DNA of 24,000 nucleotides from an uncultured Actinomycetes bacterium (GCA_963718675.1 OY970366.1:510472-534471); one strand, 5' to 3'. Shown: positions 17,470 through 21,682, counted from the first letter of the stretch. Made by a program: numbers and translations. The notes: generated from the letters alone by a model not told the origin.

Positions 17470-17493
17470 CCATAGCGGGGGCGGGTTTTGAAC
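17470..17493 (-). repeat. tRNA-Met 3'-end-like direct repeat, copy 1 (att-like)
   Basis: CCATAGCGGGGGCGGG (17470-17485) is identical to 19494-19509 and 21667-21682. The next 8 nt (TTTTGAAC) resemble the T-loop part of copy 2 (ATTCGAAC). Confidence 0.6.
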
Positions 17494-17562
17494 AGACATC
17501 AGCGACGGTGCCGTGCGCGTACCGGATCGTCGAGATTCGCCGTCTCGGCCGAGAGACTCTGA

Positions 17563-17742
17563 CTACGAACGCGCTGAGCGACGAGCGCGTTGAGCCGACC
17601 GCGGCTTCGTGAGCGCGGCGATCTCCCGCTCGGCCTTGCGCGACCCCTTGGCGAAGGCCGCCTGGACGTCGGCGCGCAGCGGCGCACGATCAGCAACGAT
17701 GCGGATGCCGTGCGGGTTGCGGCTGTCAAGCGGACTCGTCAC
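17563..17742 (-). CDS. small hypothetical ORF (59 aa), possibly a gene remnant
   Basis: GTG 17742 to TAG 17563, translating VTSPLDSRNPHGIRIVADRAPLRADVQAAFAKGSRKAEREIAALTKPRS.... Third codon positions are mostly G/C. I recognise no family. It is below the 60-aa cutoff of the ORF track. Confidence 0.2.
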   Translation of the reverse strand: MTSPLDSRNPHGIRIVADRAPLRADVQAAFAKGSRKAEREIAALTKPRSAQRARRSARS

Positions 17743-17814
17743 GTCTCTGAGTGTACGCCCGCGTCACGACACGCCGGCACCGCCGACGGCGCCATTGGCT
17801 GGGGGGCCTCGGGC

Positions 17815-18610
17815 TCAGTCCTCGCACCAGACGCGGCGGACGGGATCCCACGTCGTCAGCTTCTCGTCGGCGTCGGTGACGAGCGGATCGACGAACTCGC
17901 GCACGTCAGCGAGCAGTTCGCTCCACGCCTGCGGCAACGGACGCTGATAGGCCATACGCGAGAGCATTGCCGCATACGACGCTTGACGGTCGGGCAGTGA
18001 GCGTGCGGCTCAGCGTCCAGACGTCGGCGAAGTCGCGGTCGCGGGTGTTGAGCTCACGACGACCCATCATCGTCGCGATCTTCTCGGCCAGCGTCAGCTC
18101 GGGCGGATAAGACGCCAACCGGATGCTCCCACCCAGGAGCTCGGGCAGATCGATGAGCACCGACCTGTGCGGGTCGCCGAAGGAGAAGTCAAGCGTCACG
18201 ATCGGCTTCGCGGTGGCCAGACGCGCCTGGATCTTGACCCGAACGCCGTGATACTCGGCCTGCTCGCGCATGACCTGCGTGCGGACGGTGCCGACATCGA
18301 ACACCAGGCCGTCGTCGTCGGCCAGCACGACCGTCGCGATGTCGGCGACGACCCGAGCGATGTGCCTCGGGTCGTTGGGGACCCCGACCGTCGAAAGATC
18401 GGCGTCCTTCGTCATCCGGCGTGTCGCGGTCGCAGCCATCAGCATGCCGCCCTTGAGCGTCATCGTCCTCGAATGCGGCGATGCCGCCAGGCGGCGCAGG
18501 AAGCCCTCGACGCCGTAGACGACCAAGAGCTGCCCGGTCGCGCCGCCGTAGTCGGCGCGTGCGAGCTGCTGCAGCCCCCGATAGACGTCCCGTGCGCGAT
18601 CGCTGTTCAC
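17815..18610 (-). pseudogene. abiEii: AbiEii/AbiGii nucleotidyltransferase toxin, second copy; single-nt frameshift near the C-terminus
   Basis: LKGGMLMAATATRRMTKDADLS...EYHGVRVKIQARL...VTLDFSFGDP...YPPELTLAEKIATM...NTRDRDFADVWTLSR is in one frame. The natural-looking tail SLPDRQASYAAMLSRMAYQRPLPQAWSELLADVREFVDPLV...WDPVRRVWCED* is in another. The join lies at ~17999-18010. 796 nt = 3n+1. GTG 18610 overlaps the abiEi stop (GTGA). Confidence 0.8.
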
Positions 18611-19212
18611 GCGAGGATCACCTCGAGCGCCTGCCGCATCTGCCGCTCACCCCCCAGATGACGCGCCAGAGCGCTCAGACGCAGCGGATCGGCGTCCTCA
18701 CGAGCCATGTAGCGCCGAAGCGCGGCCAACGCGACATCGCGACCGACCTGCCGCTGCATCCGCATCGCGTCGACGACGCACCGTGCAGCCGAGTAGATCC
18801 AGAACGGCTCGCCCGTCTCGGTGTGCTCGGCCTGGCGCTCGAGCGCAAACGTCTCGGCGCGGAACCGGTGCAACGTCGTCGCCGGCGTGTCGATCTTCGG
18901 CCAGTGAGCGCCGCGGGCGATCGCGAGATGGACGCTGTCCGGCAGCTCGTCGGACAGATCCCAATAGGACAGTCCCGAGCTCAAGCAGATCGTCGCGTCC
19001 GGCGCGCGCGCGGCGACCGCCGCGAACTCGGCATGCATGGAGGGATCGGCGTCAGCTCGCTGCAACACCCCCCGAGAGACGCCCACCAGCAAGCCGTCGT
19101 CGCGAAGGCGATACACCGCCTGACGCGGGATTCCGGCATCAACTGCTTCCCGGACCCGAAACGGCCGGTTGCCGAAGCGCTCCCGAATCGTGTCGAGATG
19201 CGATCGCCGCAT
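18607..19212 (-). CDS. abiEi: AbiEi antitoxin, second copy (short form)
   Basis: MRRSHLDTIRERFGNRPFRVREAVDAGIPRQAVYRLRDDGLLVGVSRGVL...ICLSSGLSYWDLSDELPDSVHLAI.... ATG 19212. The longer listed ORF (to 19497) only adds a read-through of the poly-G tract. Confidence 0.8.
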   Translation of the reverse strand: MRRSHLDTIRERFGNRPFRVREAVDAGIPRQAVYRLRDDGLLVGVSRGVLQRADADPSMHAEFAAVAARAPDATICLSSGLSYWDLSDELPDSVHLAIARGAHWPKIDTPATTLHRFRAETFALERQAEHTETGEPFWIYSAARCVVDAMRMQRQVGRDVALAALRRYMAREDADPLRLSALARHLGGERQMRQALEVILA

Positions 19213-19279
19213 GGAACATATCCTAACCCGACAGCGTGATCGTGGTGAGTTTTTGTCCTGAGAGGCTGGGCGATCCCAT

Positions 19280-19311
19280 CCCCCCCCCCCCCCCCCCCCC
19301 CCCCCCCCCCC
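19280..19311. repeat. 32-nt homopolymeric C tract (G32 on the abiE-2 sense strand)
   Basis: Direct count gives c19280 through c19311. It lies 68-99 nt upstream of abiEi-2 ATG 19212. Confidence 0.95.
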
Positions 19312-19442
19312 GGCGCAGGCTCCGCGGCCGCACGATCGCGGCATCTGAGGCTCAGCACCCCGTTCGAGACCTGACAGCTTGCGCACCCGACTTCGGCAGG
19401 GCCTTGGATGCCGCTCGACACGACCCTCACCGGCGAGCTGGC

Positions 19443-19486
19443 CTCCGAAAAAGAGAAAACCCCGACGGCCAACGGGCCGGTCGGGG
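19443..19486 (-). terminator. intrinsic terminator downstream of tRNA fragment / mrr
   Basis: The minus strand reads CCCCGACCGGCCC-GTT-GGCCGTCGGGG (an ~11-bp stem with one bulge), followed by TTTTCTCTTTTTC. Confidence 0.6.
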
Positions 19487-19496
19487 AATTCGTCCA

Positions 19497-19538
19497 TAGC
19501 GGGGGCGGGATTCGAACCCGCGACCTTCGGGTTATGAG
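19497..19538 (-). tRNA. truncated tRNA-Met/fMet (CAU) gene: 3' part only (anticodon loop to discriminator); att-like repeat copy 2
   Basis: The reverse complement CTCATAACCCGAAGGTCGCGGGTTCGAATCCCGCCCCCGCTA contains the CUCAUAA anticodon loop, the CCC side of the anticodon stem, the T-arm GCGGG-TTCGAAT-CCCGC and the acceptor 3' strand CCCCGCT plus A. No D-arm or 5' acceptor follows; coding sequence of mrr sits there instead. Confidence 0.75.
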
Positions 19539-20865: not shown

Positions 20866-20873
20866 ATACTGCT

Positions 20874-20885
20874 ATGTACGTACAT
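20874..20885. promoter_or_regulatory. candidate operator of the phd/yefM-relE operon
   Basis: Perfect 12-bp palindrome ATGTACGTACAT (20874-20885), preceded by TATACT (20865-20870) and followed by another GTAC and GGAGA (20902-20906) before ATG 20913. Confidence 0.4.
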
Positions 20886-20912
20886 TCAGTCGTACACGAT
20901 TCGGAGATCGCC

Positions 20913-21182
20913 ATGAGCACCGTCGGCGTGCGCGAGCTGGCCCGAAACGCCAGCGCCATCATCAACGAGCTGGACGAGACGAAGGAGCCCGCGATGATCA
21001 CGCGGCGCGGTCGCCCTGTCGCCTACATGCTCCCCGTCGACTCCGAGCAGTTCGAGGACTTCGTGCTCGCGAACGCGCCCGACTTCGTGCAAGGGATGGC
21101 CGCAGCCGACCGCGAGCTGGCACGCGGCGAGACGACCTCCCTGACTGAGGCGCGACGGCTTCTCGAAGCGGACGACCGCTGA
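20913..21182 (+). CDS. Phd/YefM-family antitoxin
   Basis: MSTVGVRELARNASAIINELDETKEPAMITRRGRPVAYMLPVD is the Phd/YefM N-terminal fold. ATG 20913 has a GGAGA Shine-Dalgarno. Confidence 0.85.
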   Translation: MSTVGVRELARNASAIINELDETKEPAMITRRGRPVAYMLPVDSEQFEDFVLANAPDFVQGMAAADRELARGETTSLTEARRLLEADDR

Positions 21183-21203
21183 CCAAGCAGCGGCGTCCGC
21201 GCG

Positions 21204-21518
21204 ATGAGCCACGTTGAGCTGTCCAAGCGCGCGCTCAAGGACCTGCGCCGCATCGACCACTCCACGCGCCGACGCCTACTCACGCTCCTCGAAGATGACC
21301 TCGCAGCCGAGCCCCAGCCACCGAACCTCGACGTCAAGCCGCTCGTCGGCCGCACACCCTGGCTGCGCCTGCGCCGCGGCGACTACCGCATCCTCTACCG
21401 ACCGCTGACCGACGCCGAGCTTCGGACGCTCCGGTCCGGCGAGGACGCCGGGTTCCTCGTAGAGCGCGTCATCGACCGCGGCGACCTCGAACGAGCGACC
21501 CCGACCCTGCCCTCATAG
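21204..21518 (+). CDS. RelE/ParE-family toxin
   Basis: MSHVELSKRALKDLRRIDHSTRRRLLTLLEDDLAAEP...LDVKPLVGRTPWLRLRRGDYRILYRP is the RelE/StbE pattern. Confidence 0.85.
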   Translation: MSHVELSKRALKDLRRIDHSTRRRLLTLLEDDLAAEPQPPNLDVKPLVGRTPWLRLRRGDYRILYRPLTDAELRTLRSGEDAGFLVERVIDRGDLERATPTLPS

Positions 21519-21577
21519 GGACACGATGACGCACCGCAACGCGCGGCGCCAGCGCATGACCGGCGGCGCCCCGCGCT

Positions 21578-21600
21578 TGGTACTCCCGACTGGTACTCCC
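21578..21600. repeat. tandem 10-nt direct repeat TGGTACTCCC x2 (possible recombinase arm-type site)
   Basis: TGGTACTCCC occurs at 21578-21587 and 21591-21600 (13-nt period), ~70 nt from att-like copy 3. Confidence 0.4.
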
Positions 21601-21629
21601 ACCCACAGCCCGCGCCGCCACACCGCCCC

Positions 21630-21660
21630 AAGAACAACAAAAGCCCCGCAAACGCGAGGC
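21630..21660 (-). terminator. intrinsic terminator adjacent to att-like repeat copy 3
   Basis: The minus strand reads GCCTCGC-GTTT-GCGGGGC (7-bp stem with one G-U pair), followed by TTTTGTTGTTCTT. Confidence 0.5.
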
Positions 21661-21666
21661 TCCTGT

Positions 21667-21682
21667 CCATAGCGGGGGCGGG
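21667..21682 (-). repeat. tRNA-Met 3'-end-like direct repeat, copy 3 (att-like)
   Basis: CCATAGCGGGGGCGGG is identical to copies 1 and 2. tRNA similarity stops after ~18 nt. Confidence 0.6.

Follow-up and report, generated by a model that had tools for sequence, protein, structure and literature searches.

Within a stretch of 24,000 nt from an uncultured Actinomycetes bacterium (GCA_963718675.1 OY970366.1:510472-534471; in the following called the window, with positions counted from its first letter), two short islets of defence and toxin-antitoxin genes, here called Z and Y, are delimited by three direct copies of the 3′ end of a tRNA-Met gene. These repeats are likely the junction scars of tandem integrative elements that were inserted serially into the 3′ part of an initiator-type tRNA-Met(CAU) gene. 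A first-pass annotation, made from the sequence alone, had proposed such serial site-specific integration, and related loci bear this out with a recurrent attachment (att) site, stacks of elements (L087, L073, L090, L091) and separate hairpins belonging to the individual copies. The same annotation considered the islets to be either strongly eroded islands or miniature cassettes mobilised in trans. Erosion agrees with traces of large serine recombinase (LSR) genes at copies 1 and 2 and with decayed cargo genes; the islets appear mostly eroded.

The 16-mer CCATAGCGGGGGCGGG occurs in exact copies at positions 17470, 19494 and 21667, all on the plus strand and in one orientation as annotated before (chance expectation 0.03), and no further copy was found in the 24,000-nt window at up to two mismatches. 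Core copy 1 (17470-17485, plus strand, 16 nt) is followed by 8 nt, TTTTGAAC, that are similar to the T-loop sequence ATTCGAAC; the two differences between them are synonymous in the LSR reading frame described below. Core copy 3 (21667-21682, plus strand, 16 nt) continues with TTGTGTAC. Copy 2 (19494-19538, minus strand) is 45 nt long and corresponds to the 3′ portion of tRNA-fMet with three trailing nt. Read on the minus strand, it consists of 42 tRNA nt, CTCATAACCCGAAGGTCGCGGGTTCGAATCCCGCCCCCGCTA, which cover the anticodon loop (CAU), the variable loop, the T-arm, the 3′ acceptor strand and the discriminator, followed by TGG. Over all 45 nt it agrees without a mismatch (100% identity) with intact tRNA-Met(CAU) genes found in metagenomes. 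Such genes, that of locus L093 for example, have a C1×U72 mismatch and three G:C pairs closing the anticodon stem, features that mark a bacterial initiator tRNA.

Because neither ARAGORN nor Rfam found a tRNA gene in the window, the 5′ half of the tRNA is missing at copy 2, and blastn-short detected no other tRNA piece in the window. Both the identity of the middle copy and the absence of its 5′ half had been recognized in the first-pass annotation. The repeats found here are thus direct, share one orientation and are identical to the 3′ part of a tRNA, as expected for serial integration at a tRNA gene. We also carried out a check that had been suggested earlier, the alignment of the three repeats with their flanks, and found no similarity past the core, with divergence setting in immediately to the left and right of every copy. 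Each repeat is bordered by unrelated sequence, and occupancy differs between genomes.

A metagenome scan with a 28-mer (the core plus the T-arm) yielded at least 120 loci; the counts of loci given in the following are among the 120 matches listed. These comprise 79 intact tRNA-fMet genes, 37 bare 3′ fragments of 28–51 nt and four copies cut by a contig end, and every match is a tRNA gene or a piece of one. Most fragments end, like copy 2, at TTATGAG in the anticodon loop. The 3′ end of tRNA-fMet is a much-used attachment site in soil metagenomes. In viral contigs, the 16-mer gave 13 matches, consisting of three intact tRNA-Met genes, one tRNA-like fragment (L022) and nine apparent chance matches, and a 25-mer matched mostly tRNA-Met genes, several of them within phage tRNA clusters.

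An LSR open reading frame (ORF) ends inside the tRNA or its fragment in 35 of these loci (22 intact, 12 fragments, one cut; iterated search). Where 600 nt or more were available on the respective side, it was present in 34 of 99 loci with an intact gene or a fragment. LSR gene and tRNA are convergent, and the 3′ 45 nt of the tRNA supply the final 15 codons of the LSR gene (AIAGAGFEPATFGL, followed by the stop). The sequence left of the intact tRNA in L093, for instance, is the 3′ end of a plus-strand ORF that reads into the tRNA (..LVANGAIAGAGFEPATFGL), with its stop codon TGA inside TTATGAG. This feature is complete in L093, L147, L177 and others, and the window copies hold its tail or a remnant only. 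The protein from L147 is an LSR because of its Resolvase, Recombinase and Zn_ribbon_recom domains. We found no close relative of the LSR protein in IMG/VR. A type IV coupling protein is encoded in one LSR element, indicative of an integrative and conjugative element (ICE) or an integrative and mobilizable element. Tyrosine integrases are encoded in eight other loci (L057, L058, L133, L155, L157, L163, L166 and L174); in L163, L174 and L166 the integrase gene directly adjoins the fragment, on the minus strand. Together, recombinase genes adjoin the tRNA-fMet end at 43 loci (35 LSR and eight tyrosine integrase genes). L073 and L088 contain pieces of an LSR gene next to their fragments.

In L060, L062, L073, L080, L084, L095, L127, L134, L158, L164 and L171, the fragment is adjoined on its right by a conserved ~100-nt arm with the motif GGCTGGACTACGTGGAGC..GGTTTCAAGCGGTTTTCGCGAGATCGA and tandem GATCGGCTGG repeats. 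L167, L080b, L109, L129 and L087a share another arm (..GAGTTGG..GAGTTGG..TTCGCTCA), which represents a second family. The arm repeats are probably recombinase binding sites. Next to copy 2 of the window, the conserved arm repeats are absent.

These loci also bear on an origin of the repeats without site-specific integration, by segmental duplication, by homologous exchange of the tRNA 3′ end or as a dispersed repeat unrelated to tRNA. With only 16 nt common to all three copies and no recombinase gene in the window, such an origin might be considered, yet we regard it as very improbable. The flanks diverge at once on both sides of each copy, and the blocks of identity stop at the T-loop (16 nt) or at the anticodon loop (45 nt), the latter at many independent loci. 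A repeat unrelated to tRNA is also at odds with the uniform tRNA identity of the 28-mer matches listed and with the recombinase genes that adjoin the same sequence at 43 of them.

Serial integration is further supported by traces of recombinase genes in the window itself. The earlier statement that no recombinase is in view holds insofar as Pfam, jackhmmer, tblastn and an LSR-family hidden Markov model (HMM) detected no intact recombinase gene or gene body in the window; it does not hold for two remains of LSR genes, at 17380-17458 and 19436-19537. Directly left of copy 1, on the plus strand, lies a probable 3′ remnant of an LSR gene (17380-17469), which would be the right arm of an older element, W. 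Its frame runs into copy 1 (..SQHRELAR..ERERIQQQ..GGAIAGAGFE). Positions 17380-17458 match the LSR gene of L093 (264-345) with 76% identity over 83 nt (E-value 2e-9 in 0.9 Mb of loci; next best 0.07). The match scores 56.3 bits, compared with 31.0 ± 3.3 (maximum 52.7) in 200 codon shuffles, and strand and frame agree with the AIAGAGFE codons made by copy 1. The remnant is internally deleted.

The second trace is the 3′ tail of a lost LSR gene (19436-19493, plus strand), which translates to ..KKRKPRRPTGRSGNSS and continues into copy 2; up to its stop, the span is 19436-19537. Tail and copy 2 together read ..KKRKPRRPTGRSGNSSIAGAGFEPATFGL* in the same frame as in the LSRs, comprising only the last ~33 codons. 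The LSR-family HMM matches here (GRSGNSSIAGAGFEPATFGL) with an E-value of 3e-7, a score that comes mostly from the 15 tRNA-coded residues. By tblastn, the tail matches the LSRs of L084, L132 and L062 over 24–33 amino acids at 70–88%. At the nucleotide level, the left flank of copy 2 has its nearest counterparts in L122 and in the 3′ end of the L132 LSR gene (GAAAAACCCCGACGG...CCGTCGGGGA). As traces of two LSR genes adjoin copies 1 and 2, erosion is shown directly. Two stop codons lie inside copy 2, the TAA of mrr (19532-19534, minus strand) and the TGA of the LSR frame (19535-19537, plus strand). Two convergent genes, mrr and the serine recombinase frame, thereby borrow the anticodon loop of the tRNA (19532-19537) for their stops, and the same is seen in L177.

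Minus-strand hairpins followed by U-runs were predicted by RNAfold beside copy 2 (−30.6 kcal/mol, z −1.8) and beside copy 3 (−24.4 kcal/mol, z −3.2; 0 of 200 shuffles fold as well), consistent with the different stem-loops plus T-runs annotated before at these two copies. No hairpin was found by RNAfold beside copy 1. Because a simple terminator scan called neither hairpin, these calls rest on RNAfold. The hairpin beside copy 3 is assigned as the terminator of islet Y (21630-21660, minus strand), and the left flank of copy 3 is closest to the terminators of L155 (an element with a tyrosine integrase), L065 and L109. The hairpin left of copy 2 appears to be the coding 3′ end of an LSR gene; in the LSR class, the recombinase tail would double as the terminator of the tRNA.

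Further support comes from other contigs with more than one copy. In seven related contigs with a fragment together with an intact gene, the intact gene is always on the side that is predicted for the window (for example in L087, L073, L090 and L091). More than one copy was seen in L087, L073, L090, L088, L107, L080 and L091, with fragments always lying on the side away from the tRNA 5′ end. In L087, fragments at 7197 and 8774 and an intact tRNA at 10397 delimit islets of ~1.5 kb and ~1.6 kb with a different hairpin at each copy and without a recombinase; one islet is a toxin-antitoxin pair of a helix-turn-helix protein and a nucleotidyltransferase. L073 and L090 harbor islands of 8 and 10 kb, respectively, that are rich in restriction-modification genes. 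Very short distances between tRNA-fMet copies were noticed in L091 (487-520 and 801-875; 0.28 kb) and L080 (4079-4118 and 4928-4973; 0.85 kb), which look like islands eroded almost to nothing.

In the explanation that we favor, the target tRNA-fMet gene would lie past the right edge of the window, on the minus strand. Every incoming element would bring a replacement 3′ end of the tRNA together with its own downstream hairpin, and the older 3′ end and the older element would be pushed to the left. The order of arrival would then be W (left of copy 1), Z, Y and X. From left to right, the proposed array consists of the LSR remnant of W, a core copy, islet Z from its arm through AbiE-2 to the LSR tail, the 45-nt piece, islet Y from mrr to its terminator, a core copy, and island X with its arm and a cyclic oligonucleotide-based antiphage signaling system (CBASS), presumably followed by a recombinase gene and the intact tRNA. 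In this model, the intact tRNA 3′ end should read CCATAGCGGGGGCGGGATTCGAACC on the plus strand. The recombinase genes of the window would have been deleted, leaving behind the LSR fragment at copy 1, the LSR tail with its hairpin at copy 2 and short defence and toxin-antitoxin islets, and the inner islets would now be unable to move by themselves.

The 45-nt junction corresponds to the identity block carried by most elements at the tRNA-fMet site. For the 16-nt junctions, a crossover near the T-loop is suggested, because they end at the start of the T-loop and the next bases merely resemble it. Stacking would be explained by the renewal of the entire 3′ part of the tRNA with each insertion, which keeps the gene usable as a target. 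LSRs pair strictly attP with attB, and excision requires attL and attR together with a directionality factor. The inner junctions of a stack would be hybrid sites that should not recombine, and hence inner elements would become stranded and decay; the LSR remnants and the damaged cargo genes fit such stranded, decaying elements. There are documented cases in which repeated integration at a single tRNA or tmRNA gene left partial copies and degenerate integrases behind (10.1101/2020.12.28.424599; PMC3146451).

The right side of the window can be followed only for a short distance. Two 2-kb Logan contigs, L001 and L002, are 100% identical to the window, of which L001 reaches ~24810. The best matches are metagenome-assembled genomes (MAGs) of Solirubrobacterales. 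In a genome scan with Cap8, the top match was such a MAG (L003, 72%), which contained no core copy and no tRNA-Met. When synteny was followed from the core gene for DUF190, the closest relative (L026, 81% amino acid identity) shared only the CrcB-DUF190 pair, and no empty site was identified.

Several observations weigh against serial integration. L001 shows neither a tRNA nor a core copy up to ~24810. No element with the 16-nt core was found elsewhere, a result of a scan whose pattern needed 28 nt and was unable to reveal one. The LSR-family profile HMM was not significant at the copy 1 remnant (E-value 0.2–0.6), and the evidence for this remnant consists of one nucleotide match, to L093, and its position. 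The left flank of copy 3 is a plain terminator without a trace of a recombinase. Moreover, islet Y is present with the same ends and without a recombinase in three assemblies (the window, L177 and L179).

This recurrence of islet Y requires a closer look. The Mrr protein of the window has a 93% homologue on the JGI contig L177 (Ga0633709_0001724). Positions 498-1835 of L177 correspond to window positions 20831-19495 with 89.5% nucleotide identity, and its positions 1-96 to window positions 21672-21577, that is, the terminator at copy 3 and the first bases of the core. Exactly at the place of the tail in the window, L177 carries an intact LSR gene of 566 amino acids, convergent with mrr, and both stops lie in the 45-nt tRNA piece. 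The L177 version of Y consists of mrr, intact VapB/PIN_3 genes and the terminator, spans ~1.8 kb and has no recombinase gene; in the window, Phd-ParE stands in place of most of the PIN gene. The third occurrence, L179, is a 1,843-nt short-read contig from another sample that represents islet Y at 83.6–86.5% identity; window positions 19495-20831 are 86.5% identical to it, and positions 21574-21682 are 83–84% identical to the starts of both L177 and L179. Both ends of L179 (1-32 and 1814-1843) lie inside the tRNA piece, and their 17-nt overlap rebuilds one 45-nt site. Such ends suit an excised circle as well as an islet flanked by two repeats that are each at least 45 nt long.

On its left, Y borders on an intact LSR element in L177 and on the hairpin of Z in the window, and these two neighbours are unrelated. 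The identical Y in three assemblies argues against independent erosion: either the loss of its recombinase predates its spread, or Y never had one. We consider three possibilities, namely that Y spread after the loss of its recombinase, that it never had one, or that it moved between strains by homologous recombination. A contig with an 88% Mrr, L178, contains no clear tRNA piece; downstream of its mrr (~2186-2230), the sequence TAGCCCCGATGATGGTCGCGCCCG resembles the tRNA sequence TAACCCGAAGGTCGCGGGTT loosely by eye and may be a decayed fragment. The cargo of Z, AbiE-2, was found in a relative of 3.56 Mb (L181) at another locus without a tRNA piece, and therefore Z provides no second example of a conserved islet.

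In a different explanation, the islets, Y at least, are still-mobile cassettes without a recombinase. Like cis-mobilizable elements (CIMEs) or pseudo-SCC (SCC, staphylococcal cassette chromosome), they would be excised and inserted by a recombinase that a neighbouring element, or one co-resident in the cell, encodes. The cassette unit would be the tRNA 3′ piece, the cargo and the terminator. Structurally, Z and Y correspond to CIMEs, as att sites lie at both of their ends and genes for recombination and transfer are lacking. Y recurs with 83–89% nucleotide identity, identical ends and no recombinase next to unrelated left neighbours, the overlapping ends of L179 are those expected of a circle with a single 45-nt site, and L087 offers two further recombinase-less islets of ~1.5 kb, one of them a toxin-antitoxin pair. 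A precedent exists in 15 Dehalococcoides ssrA islands without integration modules, which were proposed to be cis-mobilizable (PMC3146451).

Nevertheless, neither an excised form nor an empty site was observed, and a de Bruijn assembler gives ends of the L179 type equally for an islet between two repeats. Given the attP–attB pairing of LSRs, the inner hybrid junctions should not be their substrates. The mrr gene of Y adjoins the tRNA piece without an arm, whereas other elements keep conserved arm repeats there. Homologous recombination between strains could also spread Y, and the cargo modules are also found away from att sites (L181, L178). We therefore judge mobile cassettes to be a rather unlikely explanation. 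Slightly less likely still is the wider proposal that soil Actinobacteria hold cassettes of 1.5–2 kb without recombinases, each made of the 3′ 45 nt of the tRNA, a defence or toxin-antitoxin operon and a terminator, which LSRs shuffle in trans. If true, a tRNA would serve as a marketplace for defence genes that is SCC/pseudo-SCC-like or integron-like.

Decay is visible in the genes of the islets. Islet Z (17486-19435, minus strand) comprises a non-coding arm of ~320 nt, AbiEii-2 (17806-18610), AbiEi-2 (18607-19212) and, between the latter and copy 2, a run of 34 C (19279-19312), as delineated by Pfam, PADLOC and comparison with L183 and L181. AbiEii-2 lacks 92 nt (at 17996/17997) that L183 (97% identical) and L181 (88%) keep, which shortens the toxin from 295 to 234 amino acids; an exact protein match for the shortened form was not found in the database. 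L183, a short-read contig from the same sample, has CACCGCCC in place of the poly-C run, differs by ~12 substitutions over 19232-19469 and keeps the 92 nt. The poly-C run is either a strain variant or an assembly artefact. Because a contig from the same sample lacks the run and contains the 92 nt, some of the defects in cargo genes could be assembly errors instead.

Islet Y (19532-21666, genes on both strands; Pfam, PADLOC) contains mrr (19532-20527, minus strand) followed on the plus strand by a frameshifted VapB and a truncated VapC (20586-20831), Phd (20784-21182) and ParE (21204-21518), and closes with the terminator described above. The frameshift in VapB lies near 20660. VapC (RLVIDA..) ends at 20831, where the homology to L177 and L179 stops and Phd-ParE starts; both contigs have intact VapB and PIN_3 genes at the same place.

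The left part of island X (21683-24000, minus strand) encodes a type III CBASS with a 4TM effector (21950-22903) and a CD-NTase (22900-23772). Two HORMA proteins and Cap8 run past the window and were read in L001, and the homologous CBASS operon of L003 has TRIP13 upstream. Pfam and PADLOC thus agree with the cargo named in the first-pass annotation, that is, abiE-2, mrr with two toxin-antitoxin loci, and CBASS to the right, with VapBC present as remnants.

The DNA left of copy 1 also carries defence and toxin-antitoxin genes (AbiE-1, TacAT, ParE, FitA and others) back to ~10.4 kb, left of which core genes begin at 75% GC. AbiEii-1 (15017-16532) is split over two overlapping frames: the ORF at 15345-16532 corresponds to positions 1-238 of PADLOC PDLC02317 and a “WYL” ORF at 15017-15868 to positions 244-394, the result of either a frameshift or a sequencing error. 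A partial Phd-ParE in this left island (13563-13849) is 86–87% identical to the copy in islet Y (21006-21335), and both share 80–83% identity with a Phd module at the distal end of the L177 LSR element (11478-11798). From these similarities, the Phd-ParE toxin-antitoxin module appears to hop between elements at the tRNA-fMet site. A direct repeat of 46 nt with 98% identity occurs at 10685-10730 and 12320-12365. The copy at 12320-12365 is the 3′ end of an antitoxin ORF and the other an orphan remnant just past the heliorhodopsin gene. Besides heliorhodopsin, the core flank (6272-10392) encodes a three-domain DUF190 protein and CrcB, a fluoride-related pair, and a collagen-repeat BclA-like protein.

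Among known systems, tandem islands downstream of the ssrA gene of Dehalococcoides are alike in being arranged behind one small-RNA gene, in their short 3′-end direct repeats (20 bp there), in an insertion point at the T-loop, which was mapped there, and in an integrase of the serine recombinase family (PMC3146451). For about half of those islands, which lack an integration module, a cis-mobilizable or fixed state was proposed (McMurdie et al. 2011, PMC3146451). They differ in that the target here is initiator tRNA-Met instead of tmRNA, the recombinase gene converges on its target and ends inside it, the cargo consists of anti-phage defence and toxin-antitoxin genes instead of dehalogenases, and the host is a high-GC soil actinobacterium. 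In the tRNA islands of Prochlorococcus and their tycheposons, successive integrations likewise push older elements inward and leave partial tRNAs and fragmented integrases, in contrast with mostly tyrosine recombinases (910 of 937) and often replication modules, neither of which was seen here (10.1101/2020.12.28.424599). In our reading, the window is an eroded example of these documented tandem islands at one tRNA or tmRNA gene.

In SCCmec, composite SCC and pseudo-SCC, LSRs direct cassettes to the 3′ end of a single conserved gene, and arrays are split by short direct repeats; some SCC cassettes have no ccr genes and rely on recombinases in trans. Their target is rlmH/orfX and not a tRNA, they use a CcrA/CcrB pair, and the host phylum and the cargo differ. 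The link to CcrB has been made before (PMC3146451). Membership in an integron, to which the islets had been likened before, was rejected: IntI, attI and attC are lacking, no tyrosine recombinase was found in the window (jackhmmer, tblastn, Pfam), the repeats consist of tRNA sequence and there is no similarity between their flanks. The likeness to integrons is one of outcome only, with small gene cassettes stacked at one site, here without a common promoter and with repeats that are not folded attC sites.

CIMEs were defined for ICEs with tyrosine recombinases and their mobilization was shown by experiment, whereas the islets described here are known from their sequence alone. Reportedly, CIMEs and accretion in streptococcal ICEs go back to work by Pavlovic in 2004 and Bellanger in 2011. 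The islets resemble them in being flanked by att sites, without recombination and transfer genes, and located beside a competent element, as in L177 (PMC5704250). An arrangement in which the LSR gene ends inside an initiator tRNA was not found in the searchable literature, where a failed search is no proof of novelty; it may be a modestly new detail of this family.

The window itself reflects an ordinary process in which defence islands grow by repeated integration at a tRNA and then decay. More generally, elements dock frequently at the initiator tRNA-Met gene of soil Actinobacteria, with bare fragments at 37 of the 116 scorable loci among the matches listed. The main recombinase at the tRNA-fMet site is an LSR whose reading frame ends in the anticodon loop, with tyrosine integrases as a minority. 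As integration tools, LSRs whose target is defined, conserved and naturally re-usable are of practical interest. With the recurrent 1.8-kb mrr/VapBC module that has no recombinase, there is also a concrete case in which to ask whether defence genes travel as minimal cassettes.

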